From: Desulfosudaceae bacterium
GTDB lineage: Bacteria; Desulfobacterota; Desulfobacteria; Desulfobacterales; Desulfosudaceae
Reading direction: 5' to 3'
Assembly (NCBI GenBank): GCA_963674745.2
Contig: CAXXDV010000003.1
Location: forward strand, 1,280,001-1,344,000
Length of the DNA: 64,000 nt
The notes under the pieces are model-generated. The model saw only the letters and a list, made by a program, of their open reading frames with translations. It did no database searches and was not told where the DNA came from. Of this stretch, positions 3 to 8,201 are shown in pieces. The position numbers were made by a program, and so were the translations under genes. The number at the start of each line of letters is the position of its first letter. The first letter of the stretch is position 1.

Positions 3-968
3 CAACTGTCCCGGGATCAGGTCGAGATAAGTAAGGCTTCCCTGGAAAGAGCCAGGAAGCTGGTGGAAATCAACAAGCTCCTGATCGATTCCGGCCGGAT
101 GCCGTCGGTGGAGCTGGTGCAGAGTGAGGCCGAGGTCGCCAGCAGAGAGTTCGCTTATGAGGGGGCCTTGAACAATTTTGACAGGGCCAGGCTGGCACTT
201 GTAAAAGTACTGGATATCCCCAAACATACCCGATTTGTCCTGGCCGGTGAAGGCGACCTTCGACGTATTGTGCCTGATCTTGATACCTGTGCCGGCACTG
301 CTTTTGAAAACAGGCCGGATTATCTTCAGGCCCTTTTAAACCTGGAAAGCACGAAGATTAATGTGAACCTGGCAGAAAACAACCGGCTCTGGGATTTAAG
401 CTTTAATGCCGCCTACGGTGAATCCGACAGCCGAACCGATCACCATACTGACGCTCTGTCCAGCCCGCGGTTGAAGGGTGTGGGCCAGGAGTGGAACGCC
501 GGATTGAACCTCAGCGTTCCTGTGTGGGGTGATCTTTCCCGAAAACAGGCCGTACTCAGTGCCGAAACGAGCCTGAAAAAGACCCGTATCAGTCTGAAGG
601 AGCTGAAGGATAACGTCGAAACAGAAGTCCTGGATGCGATCAGAGACGTTAAAACCAAGCTGAAACAGGTTGACCTGGCCAGGCTCAGCAGGGATTTGAC
701 GGAACAAAAGCTCGTGATAGAGGACGCCAAGCTCAAAGCCGGACGCTCTACCAACTTTCAGCTGGTCAGCTTTCAGAACGATCTGGTCAATGCCCAGAAC
801 GCGGAATTGAGCGCCATTACTGACTATAGAAACGCGCTGACGTCTCTGGATCAGGTTTTGGGCACAACCCTTGACACGTGGAGGATATACTACAAGGATG
901 ATAACGGGAACGTGTTTTCAGGACCAGAACACTCGGAAAATGTCATGAAGATTTCAGACGGGCGATGA
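3..968 (+). CDS. TolC-family outer membrane efflux protein (5' end outside window)
   Basis: Frame is open from position 3. It has the OEP repeat pattern (GRMPSVELVQSEAEVA; ENRPDYLQA; GLNLSVPVW; KLKAGRSTNFQLVSFQNDL). The stop overlaps the next start (ATGA). Confidence 0.9.
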   Translation, partial: QLSRDQVEISKASLERARKLVEINKLLIDSGRMPSVELVQSEAEVASREFAYEGALNNFDRARLALVKVLDIPKHTRFVLAGEGDLRRIVPDLDTCAGTAFENRPDYLQALLNLESTKINVNLAENNRLWDLSFNAAYGESDSRTDHHTDALSSPRLKGVGQEWNAGLNLSVPVWGDLSRKQAVLSAETSLKKTRISLKELKDNVETEVLDAIRDVKTKLKQVDLARLSRDLTEQKLVIEDAKLKAGRSTNFQLVSFQNDLVNAQNAELSAITDYRNALTSLDQVLGTTLDTWRIYYKDDNGNVFSGPEHSENVMKISDGR

Positions 969-3046
969 TGATGAACACGAAAAACAAGTCAAACGGTAAC
1001 GACAGGATCATCGAGTCATATGAACGGCTTATTCATATAGCCCTGTCCCTCTCCAGGGAGAAGGACGCCGATCATTTGTTGGAGATGATTCTGGATGAGG
1101 CCCGGGCGATTTGCCGGGCGGATGCCGGTACGATTTATACCCTTGATGCAGATGAACGTTGTCTGTGGTTCGCTTTTATGCAGAATGATAAATTGAACAT
1201 CAGGACCCGCGGGGAGGACGCGGCCGACGAATACCCCCGGATTCCGCTTTACTCCGGCAGTAAGCCCAACCATGTCAATGTATCGTCCTATGTCGCCCTG
1301 ACCGGCGAAACAGTCAATATCCAGGATGTTTATAAAGATAAAAGTTTCGACTTTGAAGGGCCCAAGACATTTGACAAGCAGACCGGTTACCGGACCAGCG
1401 CCATGCTGGTCATTCCCATGAAGAATCATCTGGATGAGACGGTCGGTGTGCTTCAGCTTATCAATGCCAATGACGAACACAGCGGTACGTTCACCGCTTT
1501 TTCCGAACACGATGCGAAAATTGTTTCCGCTCTGGCCTCCCTTGCCGCCGTAGCGCTCACCAAAACCCGGCTAATCGATCAGCTGTACCGGGAATTGGAT
1601 AAAACGAGAAAACTTAAAGAGAATGTGGATGACCTCAACCGTCAGATTAAGTCGGCCTTTCTGGATGTGGAAGAATCCAACAAGGAAATGGCCGCTGCCC
1701 TGAAAAAGGTCAAGGTGACCCGGATCGTAAGTGTGGCGGTCATTATTTTTTTCCTCCTGGCCGGAGGCGGTTTTTACGTTTATCAGAAAACGGCCCTTAA
1801 GCGGAAGATGCCTTCCCGCTCAGCCGCTGCCGGTATTGCTGGCAGAGACGCCACCAGTGCCTATATCGTCACGCCGCAACCGATTTCCTCCAGTGTTTCG
1901 CTTGTGGGTAAGTTGGAACCCTTAAAGCAGATCAGCATTGTCAGTCCTTTTACCGGAAAAGTCGCGGAGAAATTTTTTGAGTATGGTCAGAACGTGGACA
2001 AGGGGCAACTGCTTGTGAAAATGGATACCGAAGAACTTAACGCCCGGATCCGGGAGGCAACGGCCAAGCACATCAAGACCAGCCAGCAGCTTCAGAATAT
2101 CCGAAACTGGAATCAAAGCACCGATGTCACCCAGGCCAAACGTTCTCTTTCCAGGTCAAAACACGCCAGGGACACCGCCGCCAGAAAGCTTGATGAAGCG
2201 AAAGTCCTTTTTGACAAAGGCATCATATCCCGTGCCGAATACGAGTCCGCTGACGAATCCTTGCGGAACGCCTTTCTGGAGTTGGCTTCCGCTGAGGATA
2301 ACCTGGCAGCGGTTCTGGAAAAGGGAAGTGCCGATAATGTCCGGGTGGCCGAGTTCGAGTTTGAAAACGCCAGTGTCGAGTTGAACAAGCTCCAGGAGCA
2401 ACTGGATATGGCTGAGGTGCGGTCGCCGGTAACAGGGATTATTCTGTTGCCAAGGGCGCTCGGCACAGAAATAAAGAGAGTTGCCAGGGGCGTTTCCGTA
2501 AACCAGGGCGAACTGCTGGTATCGGTCGGTGATCTGGAGGGCTATTCGGTAAAATGTCAGGTGGACGAAGTAGACATCGGCAAGATAAAGATCGGCCAAT
2601 CGGTGACGGTCAGTGGTGATGCCTTTCCTGACCTTTTCCTGGCAGGAAAGATCAGTCACGTCTCGTCCCAGGCGGGTTCTTCAGATGGGTTTTCTTCCAT
2701 ACCCATGTTCGATGTCATCGTGACGATCGATTCGTTGTGCCCGGAGGAGGCTGAACGACTTCGGCTGGGCATGAGCTGCAATCTTCAGGTGCAGGTTTAT
2801 AAAAACCCCCGGGCCTTGATGGTGCCGATCCATATGGTGCGTACGGATGGCGCCGAACCCCGGGTCTATGTCCGGATAAAAAAGACCGGTGAAATTAAAA
2901 TGGTTCCGGTCAAGGTCGGTATTACCACCATGGATTCGGTGGAAGTCAAGAGTGGTTTAAAGGCGGGTGATACGGTGGTAATATCCGCTGATACGGCCGG
3001 TAAAACGGGTCGCGATCAATACAACGTTGATTACCTGGGGTGGTGA
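965..3046 (+). CDS. GAF-domain-fused periplasmic adaptor (MacA/HlyD-family membrane fusion protein)
   Basis: aa ~15-205 GAF (ADAGTIY...VALTGETVNIQDVY...TGYRTSAMLVIPM...VGVLQLIN), then a coiled coil and one TM helix (VAVIIFFLLAGGGFYVY). The rest is an MFP (SPFTGKV..GQNVDKGQLL; VRSPVTG; VDEVDIGKIKIGQ; LRLGMS; VEVKSGLKAGDTVV). Confidence 0.9.
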   Translation: MMMNTKNKSNGNDRIIESYERLIHIALSLSREKDADHLLEMILDEARAICRADAGTIYTLDADERCLWFAFMQNDKLNIRTRGEDAADEYPRIPLYSGSKPNHVNVSSYVALTGETVNIQDVYKDKSFDFEGPKTFDKQTGYRTSAMLVIPMKNHLDETVGVLQLINANDEHSGTFTAFSEHDAKIVSALASLAAVALTKTRLIDQLYRELDKTRKLKENVDDLNRQIKSAFLDVEESNKEMAAALKKVKVTRIVSVAVIIFFLLAGGGFYVYQKTALKRKMPSRSAAAGIAGRDATSAYIVTPQPISSSVSLVGKLEPLKQISIVSPFTGKVAEKFFEYGQNVDKGQLLVKMDTEELNARIREATAKHIKTSQQLQNIRNWNQSTDVTQAKRSLSRSKHARDTAARKLDEAKVLFDKGIISRAEYESADESLRNAFLELASAEDNLAAVLEKGSADNVRVAEFEFENASVELNKLQEQLDMAEVRSPVTGIILLPRALGTEIKRVARGVSVNQGELLVSVGDLEGYSVKCQVDEVDIGKIKIGQSVTVSGDAFPDLFLAGKISHVSSQAGSSDGFSSIPMFDVIVTIDSLCPEEAERLRLGMSCNLQVQVYKNPRALMVPIHMVRTDGAEPRVYVRIKKTGEIKMVPVKVGITTMDSVEVKSGLKAGDTVVISADTAGKTGRDQYNVDYLGW

Positions 3047-3051
3047 GAAAA

Positions 3052-3744
3052 ATGGCCGCAAAGCTTCTCAAGCTTAATCAGATCCGTAAGTCCTACCGGC
3101 TGGGCCCGGTAGAGATGGAAATCCTCAAAGGAGTGGACCTGGATGTGGCGACGGGCGCGCTTCTTTCTATAATGGGTTCTTCCGGGAGCGGCAAATCGAC
3201 CCTGATGAACATTATGGGTTTTCTGGATACACCGGACAGCGGGTCCTACTTTCTGGAAGAAAGAGATGTCTCAGACCTTGATGACGAAGCGCTTTCTGAT
3301 ATCAGAAACGAGCGAATCGGTTTTGTGTTTCAGCAGTTCAACCTCCTCCATCGGCTTTCCGCCGTGGACAATGTGTCTTTGCCCCTGGTGTACCGGGGGG
3401 TAACGGAAAAGGAGCGCCGACATCGATCTCTGGAAATTCTGGAAAAGGTGGGCGTGTCCGACAGGGCGCATCACCGTCCCGGTGAACTTTCCGGCGGCCA
3501 GCAGCAACGGGTCGCCATTGCCAGGGCCATTGTGGGCAAGCCCTCCATTATTCTGGCCGACGAGCCCACAGGTGCTCTGGATACCAGGGTGGGCCAGGAG
3601 ATAATGGACCTTTTTATCAGGCTTAACCGGGAAGAGGGCATTACCATCGTGATTATTACCCATGACCCGAAAGTGGCCGCCCAGTGCGATATGATGGTTC
3701 GCATGGATGACGGTATAATCCATCCGCTGACGGAGGCCGTATGA
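3052..3744 (+). CDS. ABC transporter ATP-binding protein, LolD/MacB-like
   Basis: Walker A GSSGSGKS, IGFVFQQFNL, LSGGQQQRVAIARA, ILADEPTGALD, ITHD. ATG at 3052 chosen over GTG at 3040. Confidence 0.93.
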   Translation: MAAKLLKLNQIRKSYRLGPVEMEILKGVDLDVATGALLSIMGSSGSGKSTLMNIMGFLDTPDSGSYFLEERDVSDLDDEALSDIRNERIGFVFQQFNLLHRLSAVDNVSLPLVYRGVTEKERRHRSLEILEKVGVSDRAHHRPGELSGGQQQRVAIARAIVGKPSIILADEPTGALDTRVGQEIMDLFIRLNREEGITIVIITHDPKVAAQCDMMVRMDDGIIHPLTEAV

Positions 3745-4931
3745 TCCTGAGCACCAATGTCAAAGAGGCTGTTCAGAGCCTATGGAGCGCCAAGCAGCGC
3801 AGTCTTCTGGCCCTGATCGGTATTCTGGTCGGTATCGGCTCGGTTATTGCCATGGTTTCGGTGGGCACCATCGTTCAGCGGGAGGCTTTGAGGCAGTTCA
3901 AGGAGATGGGCACCGATATCCTGTCTATAACCAAAGCGTCCGGGAAAGAGGGGGCGAGGGGGCGAGACAGCGGGATAAGTCTCGATATTGCACTGGGAAT
4001 TCCGGAATACTGTTCACAGATCGAAATGGTGGCGCCTTATGCCTCTGTCTTCGGCACGTTAAAGTACCGGGGGCAGAAAATCGACACCCCGGCGCTGGGC
4101 GTGACCAGTTCTTTTTTGGATATCAACAAGCTGAAGCTGTTACAGGGGAGGTTTGTTTCCGACCTGGATCATTTCATGTATTTCTGCGTGGCCGGTGCCG
4201 GTGTTCAGCAGAAGCTGGCGGAGCTGGGTGTGGGGGAGATTGTCGGAACCAGCATCATATATATGGAAAAACAGTTTACCATTATGGGCACCATCGCCTA
4301 TGCACCGCCCACCAATATGCGACCTTATGAAGTGAGCGCGGGTATCATGATTCCCCTGTCCACTTCGCGCCGTCTGGGGCAGAATGAGGGCATCCGTTCA
4401 ATTCTGGCCCGGATGGTGCCCGATGGGGATCACCTTGTGGCAACTGATGAAATTCGCAGGTATTTTGAGACACAGGCCGAAGGCATGAGCGTGCGTGTTC
4501 AGAGCGCCGAAGAACTTATAGCGCAGATGCAGAAGCAGATGCAGATGTTTACCCTGCTTCTGGGGGTCATCGGCTCCATTTCTTTGATTGTGGGCGGCGT
4601 CGGGGTTATGAACGTCATGCTCGTTTCCGTCACCGAGCGCAGAAAGGAAATCGGTATTCGCAGGGCCCTGGGCGCGAGGCGAAAGGACATCCAGGGCCAG
4701 TTTTTGGTGGAGTCAATTTTTTTATGCCTGACCGGAGGCGTCCTGGGCGTTGCCCTGGGGTTAGCCGTGTCGTTCGCCATTGCCCGCTTTTCCAACTGGC
4801 AGTTTTTTATTTCCCACATGGCGGTAGTCCTGGGTGTGTTGGTGTCAGCGGCGGTCGGCCTCTTTTTCGGTTATTATCCGGCCCGGCAAGCTGCCAGAAT
4901 GAACCCCATTGATGCGCTCAGGACGGAATAA
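3741..4931 (+). CDS. ABC transporter permease, MacB/FtsX family
   Basis: RSLLALIGILVGIGSVIAM, a periplasmic domain, GGVGVMNVMLVSVTERRKEIGIRRALGA and YPARQAARMNPIDALR. Confidence 0.93.
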   Translation: MILSTNVKEAVQSLWSAKQRSLLALIGILVGIGSVIAMVSVGTIVQREALRQFKEMGTDILSITKASGKEGARGRDSGISLDIALGIPEYCSQIEMVAPYASVFGTLKYRGQKIDTPALGVTSSFLDINKLKLLQGRFVSDLDHFMYFCVAGAGVQQKLAELGVGEIVGTSIIYMEKQFTIMGTIAYAPPTNMRPYEVSAGIMIPLSTSRRLGQNEGIRSILARMVPDGDHLVATDEIRRYFETQAEGMSVRVQSAEELIAQMQKQMQMFTLLLGVIGSISLIVGGVGVMNVMLVSVTERRKEIGIRRALGARRKDIQGQFLVESIFLCLTGGVLGVALGLAVSFAIARFSNWQFFISHMAVVLGVLVSAAVGLFFGYYPARQAARMNPIDALRTE

Positions 4932-4942
4932 AACAACCTGCC

Positions 4943-6487
4943 ATGATTATCCGATTTCTGTTCATTCTTGTTTCGGCCGGTCTTTTCGCCCTGTGTTTTC
5001 CTGATGGTCCGCTGCCCCTGGCCGCTTTTGTCTGCCTGGTGCCCTTCGCCCTCTCCCTTGAAGGTGCCACCGCAAAATCCGGTTTGATAATGGGGTTATT
5101 GTACGGGTTTTGTATCTGGATGATCGCGGCCTGGTGGATGGCCAATGGCTTTTATTATTATGTCAGACTTCCCTGGGGTGCGGCCTGGTTCTGGACAGCA
5201 TTAATCTGCCTGATTTCGTCTCTGCCCTACATGATTTTCGGCCTGTTAAGCGGTCTGTGCGGGTGGATGAAGACCCCTTACGGCCGTTTTAAAGCGGCTG
5301 TGGCGTTGACGGTTCTTCTTTCCTGGTACCCGATCGCTTTTCCGGGAAATTACGCCCATTCGCTCTATGCCCATCCCCTGCTCATCCAGTTGGTCGATCT
5401 GGGCGGCATACCGCTTTTGTTGCTGGCCATGAATCTGATTAATTTTTTTATCGCCGGCACTCTTTTAGACCGGGCCACCCCGCGCGGTCCTGTCAAAAAC
5501 ATTCTGATGGCGATGATTACGCTGGCACTGGTGATTATCTACGGAAATTCGCGGTTGAGCCGGTTTCATGCAGACATGGCTGACGCCGACGGGGACCGGC
5601 GGGTGAAGATCGTTTCCGTTCAACCCAACCTTTCGCTCAAGCGGGCAGGGGTGCCTCAGGTCTTCGGTAACGCTGAAAAAGCAAAAGACACGGCGTCTGT
5701 TTTGACGCTATCGGAAGAAGCGATAACCCTTTTCCCGGACGCACAGGCTGTCGTGTGGCCTGAGCTGCCGGACGGCATTTCCTGTAATCCTGATAATGGA
5801 ATCTGGCGAAAGGTTCGTGATCTGGCCTCAAAATCAGGCATCCCGTTTATCGTTAATTGCTATGAATATAACCCGGCTGTTCGAGGTGATTACAATATTG
5901 CCCGGTTAATATCCGGGGCCGGAGAAACAGGCCCCGGATACCGGAAGCGGATTCTTCTGCCTTTTGGCGAGTATCTGCCCGGAGAACGGCATCTGCCCTG
6001 GCTGCGACGGCTTTTCCCACGGTCTCTTTACTATATCCCGGGTGATGATGGCGTTACCCTCCTGCCCCTTGGCGGAAAGCATCAGGCAATTCCCACCCTG
6101 TGCTATGAAGTGCTGTTCCCCGGCCTGGTGCGGGATTTTGTTCTTCAAGGCGGCGATGTGATCATCAACCTGGTCGATGATGTCTGGTTTGGGGAGAGCG
6201 ACGCATCGGCCATCCACATGGCCCTGGCCGTATTTCGGGCGGCGGAATACCGGTTACCGCTGGTCAGGGTGACCAATTCAGGAAATGGCGTGTTTGTCCA
6301 GCCTACAGGAGAAATCGTCGATGGATCGAGAACACCGGTGTTCCAGCCCCGGCTGACCGCTTTTCCTTTGTTCGTGCCCCCGGATCGATCCCTTTACGCG
6401 GCCTGCGGGAATACTTTTCTGATATTTCTAACGGTGTTGTTGGGGGTAGAAGTGGTTTGTTATCGGATCATTTCTTGTCCTTTTTAA
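4943..6487 (+). CDS. Apolipoprotein N-acyltransferase-like protein (Lnt/AatD family)
   Basis: N-terminal multi-TM region and a nitrilase domain with the E-K-C triad: VVWPE, YRKRILLPFGEY, TLCYEVLF. Also DDVWFG and FRAAEYRLPLVRVTNSG. Symbol left blank because it may be a paralog rather than the housekeeping lnt. Confidence 0.88.
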   Translation: MIIRFLFILVSAGLFALCFPDGPLPLAAFVCLVPFALSLEGATAKSGLIMGLLYGFCIWMIAAWWMANGFYYYVRLPWGAAWFWTALICLISSLPYMIFGLLSGLCGWMKTPYGRFKAAVALTVLLSWYPIAFPGNYAHSLYAHPLLIQLVDLGGIPLLLLAMNLINFFIAGTLLDRATPRGPVKNILMAMITLALVIIYGNSRLSRFHADMADADGDRRVKIVSVQPNLSLKRAGVPQVFGNAEKAKDTASVLTLSEEAITLFPDAQAVVWPELPDGISCNPDNGIWRKVRDLASKSGIPFIVNCYEYNPAVRGDYNIARLISGAGETGPGYRKRILLPFGEYLPGERHLPWLRRLFPRSLYYIPGDDGVTLLPLGGKHQAIPTLCYEVLFPGLVRDFVLQGGDVIINLVDDVWFGESDASAIHMALAVFRAAEYRLPLVRVTNSGNGVFVQPTGEIVDGSRTPVFQPRLTAFPLFVPPDRSLYAACGNTFLIFLTVLLGVEVVCYRIISCPF

Positions 6488-6593: not shown

Positions 6594-8201
6594 ATGCTTA
6601 TCTTTTCATCAAGATTCAATAGCTTCTTTTTTTTTATTCTATTATTTATTGCAGTAAGAACTGCGTTCGCTTCACAGCAAATTCAAATCGTTCCTGATTC
6701 TGCTTCGAATAAGATAGAAAACAAGGCAACATTTGAACGCACAGCCCTCAAAACAGAAAAAGGGCTGCTGATGTGGGATTATGAAAAGATTCCCGTTCCT
6801 GACAATAAAGCTATTGATTTGCTGGGCTTTCATTATCTTCACCAGGTGAACAGGTGGCTTTTTCTGGGTTTTGGCGCCCATGCCCCCCTGGTCGATGGAG
6901 ATTATGGCGGCTTTATGGCAGCAGATGCCACAATACATGCGCAACGAAAAATATTCGGGAATTCATTTGTCGATGCCGGCGTCTCCATGGGCGGGGGCGG
7001 CGGTGGCTCCAGTATAAACCAGAGCAGAGAATTATCCGGAAAGGGCGGTTATATAAAAAGTTACGCAGGGTTGGGGTACGATTTTCGCCTTTTCTCATTA
7101 GGCGTAAACTATGCGCACTTTAAATTCATGAATTCCTCTATCAAGCACTCACAATTCAATTTTTTTATCCAAAAACCAATTTCATTTTCGATCAGTCCAT
7201 ATGCGAATTCAGGAAAACAGAACGCATTTGATGTTAGCCTTTCAGGATCCAAAGAAACGATACTGACACTTGAATTTAATAATATATTTCAAATTAAACC
7301 GGAAGGCTCGAATACCAGAACGATTAATACGTTTTCCCTGCAATTTTCACGGTTCCTGAATAACAATCATTATTTTTTTCTTGGAGCGGATGTCGGCTAT
7401 AACGGCCTTCCACTGTATAATCAATTATTCGGTGGTATCGGGTATAAGCATACAATCTCTTCCCGCGTTAATCTACATGGCCAGATCGGTGTCGGCTCCG
7501 GCGGGTATTCGCCGGATATAATCGATACCGGCCCCGGACTGCTTGTTTATCCAAAATGTTCGGTTGAATACTTATTGAATAATCATATTGGATTATCTTT
7601 GTCGGGTGGCTATTTGTTAGCGCCGGAAGGTTCCTCTAGAAATTTTACCCTGGGCGCTGCCATGAATTACCACCTTTCGACAACAGATCGTATCCCTGAT
7701 AAATCCAGCCCAGAGAAGCGTCTGGTATTTCGGGGATTTCGTTTCAATGTGTTCCATCAAACTGAGTTTAATGTCAAATTAGGAGATATGGATCACGACA
7801 ACATCAATTTTTTATCATTTCAACTTGATAATCTTGTGCATGATAACTGGTATATACCCGTTCAGGTCAGTGTCGCGTATAATGATTTTTTCGGGTATCC
7901 CGGGTATGGCGAAATGTTAACCGGATTCGGTTTGCAGAATAAATACGCATCAACAAATCGTTTCCAGTACTTTTGCCAGGTTTTGATTGGCGTTAATGTC
8001 CATAGTGTATTGTTAAAACCTTCGATGGGGATAAATTACAGCTTGAGTGATCATTTTGCGCTCTATGCCCAGGTCGGAAAGACCATATCACTTTATAAAT
8101 TAGACCTGTACAATAATTTTGACCAGTATAACGAACGATTGAATACCAGCTTTATCGGAATCGGGTTGACCTATCGTTTTTCGGTACTGGACATCCTGTA
8201 A
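6594..8201 (+). CDS. Hypothetical outer-membrane beta-barrel protein with three similar internal units
   Basis: Signal peptide ending AFA, alternating hydrophobic beta-strands rich in G/Y/F, and GIGLTYRF near the C-terminus. Lower GC than the upstream operon. Confidence 0.65.
   Translation: MLIFSSRFNSFFFFILLFIAVRTAFASQQIQIVPDSASNKIENKATFERTALKTEKGLLMWDYEKIPVPDNKAIDLLGFHYLHQVNRWLFLGFGAHAPLVDGDYGGFMAADATIHAQRKIFGNSFVDAGVSMGGGGGGSSINQSRELSGKGGYIKSYAGLGYDFRLFSLGVNYAHFKFMNSSIKHSQFNFFIQKPISFSISPYANSGKQNAFDVSLSGSKETILTLEFNNIFQIKPEGSNTRTINTFSLQFSRFLNNNHYFFLGADVGYNGLPLYNQLFGGIGYKHTISSRVNLHGQIGVGSGGYSPDIIDTGPGLLVYPKCSVEYLLNNHIGLSLSGGYLLAPEGSSRNFTLGAAMNYHLSTTDRIPDKSSPEKRLVFRGFRFNVFHQTEFNVKLGDMDHDNINFLSFQLDNLVHDNWYIPVQVSVAYNDFFGYPGYGEMLTGFGLQNKYASTNRFQYFCQVLIGVNVHSVLLKPSMGINYSLSDHFALYAQVGKTISLYKLDLYNNFDQYNERLNTSFIGIGLTYRFSVLDIL

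Follow-up and report, generated by a model that had tools for sequence, protein, structure and literature searches.

The Aat/Cex system, which comprises AatPABCD and its cargo dispersin (Aap) or CexE, has been described in enteroaggregative Escherichia coli (EAEC), enterotoxigenic E. coli (ETEC) and Citrobacter rodentium (PMC7943197, PMC7478709, PMC13622617). Mature CexE begins with GGGNS, of which the glycine at +1 is essential for acylation by AatD and that at +2 is helpful; on mCherry, one to three glycines were found to be enough for acylation, which rose with their number (PMC7943197). The order aatP-A-B-C was present as one operonic unit in all 826 loci (PMC7943197), and AatD has been reported as confined to Enterobacterales (PMC7478709). 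In the available text of these papers, glycine-acylated bacterial lipoproteins with a secretion system are reported from Enterobacterales only and with one cargo family; the 826 accessions of Icke could bear on this range. The 64-kb stretch of DNA analysed here (the window) was found to begin with an operon of five plus-strand genes (3..6487) for a TolC-like outer-membrane factor, an adaptor, an ATPase, a MacB-type permease and an Lnt paralog, which is likely to be a dedicated lipidate-and-export system working like Aat/Cex, with small glycine-starting secreted proteins as its cargo.

The locus has the same five component classes as Aat/Cex, with an Lnt-family enzyme carrying the E-K-C triad placed last. 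In both cases the cargo are small signal peptidase I (SPase I) substrates free of a lipobox and with a glycine-rich start (GGGNS in CexE, GGSGW in Aap; GGGGT, GGGPS and GGGIN here), and both AatD and the window enzyme are without the KW motif of Lnt. Short proteins starting with GG[GS] or [AS]G[GS], a motif written after the positive loci had been seen, were found at 3/3 loci with the pump and an adjacent Lnt (6 matches in 60 kb) and at 0/9 pump-only, 0/6 Lnt-only and 0/48 canonical-lnt loci (1.0 Mb). The glycine-starting cargo therefore tracks the joined pump and Lnt unit and not either half.

The initial annotation had described five co-oriented genes with overlaps or gaps of at most 11 nt, together supplying the Aat component set and ending in a nitrilase-fold acyltransferase with an intact E-K-C triad, in an apparent deltaproteobacterium. 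The open reading frame (ORF) coordinates and domain matches agree with this layout, as tolC/adaptor and ATPase/permease each overlap by 4 nt, permease and lnt are separated by 11 nt, and adaptor and ATPase either overlap by 7 nt (GTG start) or lie 5 nt apart (ATG at 3052). The complete tolC ORF (562 aa) starts 720 nt ahead of the window. The whole component set (TolC-like protein, adaptor, ATPase, MacB/Lol-type permease and Lnt homolog) is found in the one unit, and the triad was located at E274-K335-C387. The label of deltaproteobacterium fits, since among named relatives an uncultured Desulfobacteraceae metagenome-assembled genome (MAG; 65–78% identity per gene) comes closest.

However, there are clear differences from Aat/Cex. 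The order here is cargo-TolC-adaptor-ATPase-permease-Lnt, in place of P-A-B-C-D. The adaptor is 693 aa long, compared with 259–273 aa for AatB, because a cytoplasmic GAF domain and a coiled coil stand ahead of its single transmembrane (TM) helix, and the enzyme has the full Lnt length of 514 aa, compared with 404–416 aa for AatD. Several cargo families are present, unrelated to dispersin/CexE, and the DNA comes from an environmental bacterium of sulfate-reducing type, of a Desulfobacterota-like lineage and not of Enterobacterales. The system is not filed as a member of Aat, because the aatPABC order and the dispersin/CexE-type cargo sequence do not hold here and the enzyme and pump are no more than possible orthologues of their Aat counterparts.

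MacAB-TolC, for which a two-step export of a periplasmic protein has been described (PMC7943197), and LolCDE likewise resemble the pump in having a MacB_PCD/FtsX permease, a LolD/MacB-type ATPase, an adaptor and TolC. In contrast to these, the ATPase and permease are split here, the adaptor is fused to a sensor, and acyltransferase and cargo are co-encoded. All MacA, MacB and LolD equivalog scores are below cut-off (MacA and MacB models: 68 vs 342 and 255/195 vs 966, respectively). A GAF-adaptor fusion is also known from the GAF-HlyD proteins of SecA_DEAD-linked loci resembling type I secretion systems, for which a regulatory role was merely suggested (PMC4452313). Those loci, however, contain M50 peptidase and SecA_DEAD genes, and no MacB permease or Lnt is named in the available text of that paper. 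A literature search, in which few subscription papers were covered, listed no account of such a system in Desulfobacterota or of a MacB exporter with a GAF or PAS adaptor and an Lnt paralog.

Candidate cargo with a glycine-rich start

It had been suggested in the initial annotation that a substrate gene, for a small SPase I protein with Gly at +1, might lie upstream of tolC. Two such genes, subA and subB, were found there, just upstream of the window (Table 1). Both products have SPase I-type signals and no lipobox, and a sigma-70-like consensus is present upstream of subA. Among nine aligned SubA homologs (of 10 matches, a 93-aa fragment being left out), Gly occurs at +1 in seven and at +2 in all nine, and in 8/8 SubB homologs GGG directly follows an Ala at the predicted cleavage site. 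A third family, SubC, is present as four dispersed paralogs in which the signal peptide is followed by an invariant GGGIN, and it is a probable remote cargo of the operon. When the genome was scanned, GGG was the commonest word at +1 to +3, with 8 seen vs 0.96 expected among 1212 candidate sites in 727 ORFs; for one of the eight (C3:2200906, 335 aa) the cleavage site was probably called wrongly.

No significant Pfam family was found for SubA, SubB or SubC. The three families and Aap/CexE are mutually unrelated (profile-profile probability <1%), each family giving a probability of 0.2–0.3% against six Aap/CexE sequences with shallow alignments, and the GGG tip is the sole feature common to the three. 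The SubA structure model is a beta-sandwich (predicted local distance difference test, 76) with background-level fold matches (best Z 7.0, root-mean-square deviation 3.1, 114 aligned), and that of SubB is weak. Neither model had dispersin among its listed fold matches, which does not exclude a dispersin fold. A search of ESM Atlas with SubA returned only leads below 0.9, and no close member was found when viral sequences were scanned with SubB.

Elsewhere in the genome (G000:C1:866838-867302, plus strand) there is a gene for a small secreted orphan whose mature start is also GGG; it is not related to SubA, SubB or SubC and is a possible further cargo.

Table 1. Genes of the operon, candidate cargo genes and broken cargo copies; positions without a prefix are those of the window, G000 is the genome of the window and L007 the related locus in G788
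Feature	Position	Strand	Remarks
tolC-like outer-membrane factor, 3' part	3..968	+	PF02321 (OEP), E=2e-31
GAF-fused periplasmic adaptor, 693 aa	965..3046	+	Pfam GAF and HlyD_D23/HlyD_3
MacB/LolD-type ABC ATPase	3040..3744	+	Pfam ABC_tran; 234 aa from GTG, 230 aa from ATG 3052
MacB-type permease, 396 aa	3741..4931	+	Pfam MacB_PCD and FtsX; 4 TM helices
Non-canonical Lnt-family N-acyltransferase (predicted), 514 aa	4943..6487	+	Pfam LNT_N and CN_hydrolase
subA	G000:C3:1278761-1279246	+	161 aa, mature start GGGGT, 33 nt before tolC
subB	G000:C3:1278044-1278463	-	139 aa, mature start GGGPS, divergent
SubC, four dispersed paralogs	G000:C3:633495, 1541041, 1578039, 1599784		about 150 aa, Cys-rich
Broken SubC-family copy in G788	L007 12451-12900	-	flanks operon; premature stops and frameshift
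Broken SubC-family copy in G788	L007 3804-4076	+	flanks operon

The Lnt paralog, housekeeping Lnt and AatD

The window enzyme shares with housekeeping Lnt of E. coli and Pseudomonas aeruginosa (PDB 5n6h, 5n6m) an LNT_N and a nitrilase domain and the catalytic E/K/E/C residues, here E274 (nt 5762), K335 (nt 5945), E343 and C387 (nt 6101), which are invariant across 54/54 aligned relatives. Its score against TIGR00546 is 181.6 bits (cut-off 132.9). The genome (99.96% complete) holds four Lnt-like genes, with TIGR00546 scores of 352, 310, 272 and 182 bits, of which the window gene has the lowest. A second, canonical lnt is thus present, as would be expected if the window gene is the paralog that the initial annotation took it for; of the three other lnt genes the neighbour of prfB scores highest against the model (352 bits), and these three are predicted to cover the housekeeping function.

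Among 1.84 billion cluster representatives, 374 matched the enzyme at E<=1e-30, of which the best 150 were listed. A FastTree phylogeny was built from 211 rows (77 canonical, 128 non-canonical and 6 AatD) and an IQ-TREE mixture-model tree from 42 hand-picked rows of these 211; both were without an outgroup, and rows of >660 aa or <430–470 aa were left out. One side of the tree (FastTree 99; IQ-TREE 100/100) comprised E. coli Lnt together with the three further paralogs of the genome and other canonical rows, whereas the window enzyme fell among the 128 non-canonical rows. These are mostly 50%-identity cluster representatives, from sources including Deltaproteobacteria, Syntrophales, Myxococcota and Proteobacteria. 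The window enzyme is outside the housekeeping group, and a forced clade with Desulfobacterota housekeeping Lnt was rejected by the approximately unbiased (AU) test (p-AU 1.2e-90). A housekeeping role is not indicated for it, as it is outside the canonical group and is not the main lnt of the genome.

In addition to its separate branch, the window enzyme differs from housekeeping Lnt in having no K236-W237 and an Asp for N412. The K236-W237 pattern occurs in 31/77 canonical, 0/128 non-canonical and 0/6 AatD rows, Trp being found in the W237 column in 48/77 canonical rows, and the position of E. coli N412 is Asn in 77/77 canonical rows and Asp in the window enzyme and 4/6 AatD; these counts describe the groups and are not a test of them, because the non-canonical rows were gathered by query similarity and it was the tree that defined the groups. 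In the available text of one report, W237 is essential solely for the second step, the transfer to the lipoprotein Cys (10.1101/497412).

As regards AatD, the best (IQ-TREE) tree nests it with four non-canonical rows in a sub-branch separate from the window enzyme (100/98). Its branch is very long, and neither a position outside the non-canonical family (p-AU=0.41) nor a sister relationship to the window enzyme (p-AU=0.35) was rejected. Of the top 20 matches to an AatD profile, 19 are non-canonical Lnts. With an AatB profile the window adaptor was the sole match in the genome, although a weak one (E=0.007). The AatC profile ranks the window ATPase third, the AatP and AatA profiles match other genes weakly and not those of the window, and a tree of the ATPases was uninformative on the placement of AatC.

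Some candidate members of the family (G407, G727, G609, G467, G172 and 8 further matches) were rejected as canonical Lnt. A metagenome scan with an 11-row profile returned 80 loci, of which two are near relatives (L036, L037) and the remainder score like canonical Lnt. No close member was among the matches listed in plasmid searches, and ESM Atlas returned generic Lnt clusters for the enzyme. The gene contexts inspected come from one phylum.

Two of the other lnt paralogs have secreted proteins nearby. The lnt paralog C3:2389196, which is divergent and on the canonical branch, has two genes away from it the gene of a lipase-like secreted protein whose mature start is GGSNP (G000:C3:2387002-2387901), and several secreted proteins around paralog C1:528913 (G000:C1:518396-539701) start with FAP and then a proline run.

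Distribution of the locus and its sensor-bearing pump

It had been asked in the initial annotation whether the linkage of exporter and lnt is conserved elsewhere, and it was found to recur in two further genomes. In the Desulfobacteraceae MAG (G788, locus L007) the same five genes stand in the same order at 65–78% identity, GAF included. Its cargo genes are downstream on the opposite strand and comprise a SubA orthologue (74%), an 80-aa ORF with a signal peptide followed by GGGR, a broken SubC (64%) and a SubB orthologue (58%); they have switched side and strand, yet remained with the operon. Since broken SubC copies flank the operon of G788, it is suggested that the locus both acquires and loses cargo genes. 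The locus in G059, of another family, is ordered differently and comprises lnt (43%), genes for two small, unrelated secreted proteins, an adaptor with PAS, an ATPase, a permease and TolC. A second lnt is present in both G788 and G059. In addition, the arrangement permease-lnt-subB is repeated on metagenome contig L036.

The distribution of the system is patchy. The window-type enzyme was found in 0/12 family relatives, one of which is a congener with a 99%-complete genome, in none of 34 relatives of G059 or 42 genomes of another class, and in 2/209 genomes of the order of G788. The 12 family relatives, which are without this Lnt, gave no SubA or SubC either. SubC is present in G000 and G788, the latter being the only one of 209 genomes of its order to have it (0/208 others), and it was not found in G059, G429, G702 or G176.

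The adaptor carries a GAF domain, unmentioned in the initial annotation, at residues 34-198 (about nt 1064-1558), followed by the coiled coil, the TM helix at residues 254-272 (about nt 1724-1780) and the membrane-fusion part. As the GAF is N-terminal of the single TM helix, it is placed in the cytoplasm. A GAF/HD-type protein encoded at C3:2109116 of the same genome has a GAF with 51% identity to it. In other members of the adaptor family an N-terminal PAS was found (5/5 ORFs extracted from 13 loci).

The adaptor family is present in 8/401 genomes of a phylum sample, and 8/9 tested genomes with a non-canonical Lnt carry this family or the pump, three of the eight being of one genus. For six sister non-canonical Lnts, the flanks that were fetched contain no pump; of the five of their genomes tested, four have a pump elsewhere and one gave no match. 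In G422 and G508 the pump is 18–25 kb from the sister Lnt on the same strand, and in G947 enzyme and pump are both present and unlinked. It is proposed that the pump is a member of a wider sensor-adaptor exporter family, to which the acyltransferase is an add-on.

Further loci related to the pump or the enzyme were noted. G000 has a second module of PAS-adaptor, ATPase and permease (C3:2095527-2099340), which includes neither TolC nor lnt, and a lone TolC (C1:2510996-2512639) that is a close paralog of the window TolC (800 bits); the two may pair up. In G073, four tandem small secreted paralogs with an FCVYNK start (L170 14676-17412) lie directly upstream of the same pump family, and no non-canonical Lnt was found in that genome. 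Sister Lnts at L025, L026, L028, L029 and L030 stand amid small secreted proteins starting with Trp, Phe, Ser, Ala or Asn.

Proposed route, rival explanations and neighbouring genes

According to the reading of the locus as a lipidate-and-export system, SubA, SubB and SubC would cross the inner membrane by Sec, and SPase I would expose the N-terminal GGG. By analogy with AatD, the Lnt paralog would then pass an acyl chain from a phospholipid through C387 to the free alpha-amine of Gly+1, the product being a mono-acylated, cysteine-free lipoprotein. The ATPase and MacB-type permease would extract this protein from the membrane, and the adaptor-TolC conduit would carry it to the surface or the medium. 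The cytoplasmic GAF probably gates or assembles the pump on a small-ligand signal, although this role is speculative.

A number of observations weigh against this reading. The cleavage sites were called with an in-house heuristic and not SignalP, +1 is Ser in 2/9 SubA homologs, and in the small proteins of G059 the likelier cleavage leaves Ala ahead of GGG or GS. Direct linkage is found in just three genomes, two of them close (65–78% identity). W237 is absent from 29/77 canonical rows too, the AU tests allow more than one placement of AatD in the tree, and the window enzyme reaches only 3.8 bits against the AatD profile. Moreover, five pump-bearing genomes have canonical-scoring Lnts only, the small secreted neighbours of the six sister Lnts do not start with Gly, and nine pump loci have no adjacent lnt. 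The last of these, one of which (G073) has the four tandem proteins with FCVYNK after the signal peptide, would fit an enzyme that acylates GGG proteins which are retained in the inner membrane or sorted by Lol, and a pump that independently exports other small periplasmic proteins, as would the second PAS-adaptor module and orphan TolC paralog of G000. This explanation is considered unlikely, given that subA, the pump genes and lnt form a tight co-oriented unit that is kept in G788 and reordered in G059, and that the adaptor family is so much more frequent in the tested genomes with a non-canonical Lnt than in the phylum sample (8/9 vs 8/401, with the genus bias given above).

It is also conceivable, at a similarly low probability, that the GGG proteins are exported unmodified, with the glycines acting as a flexible tip or export signal, and that the acceptor of the Lnt paralog is a different one, for example ordinary Cys-lipoproteins or a small amine. 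GGG starts by the pump occur solely with an adjacent Lnt (3/3 vs 0/9), the enzyme is without the KW motif, and the genome has three canonical paralogs, all of which argue against such a role, whereas the sister Lnts without glycine cargo, the full Lnt length of the enzyme with a score above the lnt equivalog cut-off, and the variation at +1 in some relatives (Ser, probably Ala) are in its favour. An ordinary MacAB-TolC-type efflux pump with a spare lnt adjacent by chance would agree with the best family matches of ATPase and permease, which are MacB models under their cut-offs, but it is very improbable considering the linkage in three genomes and two gene orders, the enrichment of glycine cargo and the co-occurrence of cargo and enzyme.

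The preferred reading, a dedicated lipidate-and-export system, suggests that the route of glycine lipidation and export, until now described in gut pathogens, also operates in bacteria very distant from these, where the cargo is new and the pump carries a sensor. If true, cysteine-free lipoproteins would be a broader bacterial strategy, marked by a simple signal (a signal peptide, then GGG) that is overlooked by lipoprotein predictors. More tentatively, and with the balance somewhat against it, the non-canonical Lnt-like family may be large and undescribed, with AatD as its fast-evolving offshoot, and may form with PAS/GAF-gated MacB-type pumps a general second lipoprotein pathway, by which any secreted protein with a GGG start would be lipidated and sent to the surface genome-wide under small-ligand control; sister enzymes may acylate other N-terminal residues. 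With its enzyme, a number of unrelated cargos and an Lnt-like scaffold of full length, the locus would be suited to studying the shift of an Lnt from diacylglyceryl-Cys to Gly, as well as the possible gating of a tripartite exporter by a sensor in the cytoplasm.

Downstream of the operon, a 535-aa gene (6594..8201, plus strand) was considered as a member of the system and excluded because of its lower GC content and because no other fetched locus has a homolog. Its product gave no significant Pfam match, and no homolog was found in its own genome. The gene, at about 41% GC, lies between the operon and lon/clpX, and the encoded protein has a signal peptide and beta-barrel-like ends.

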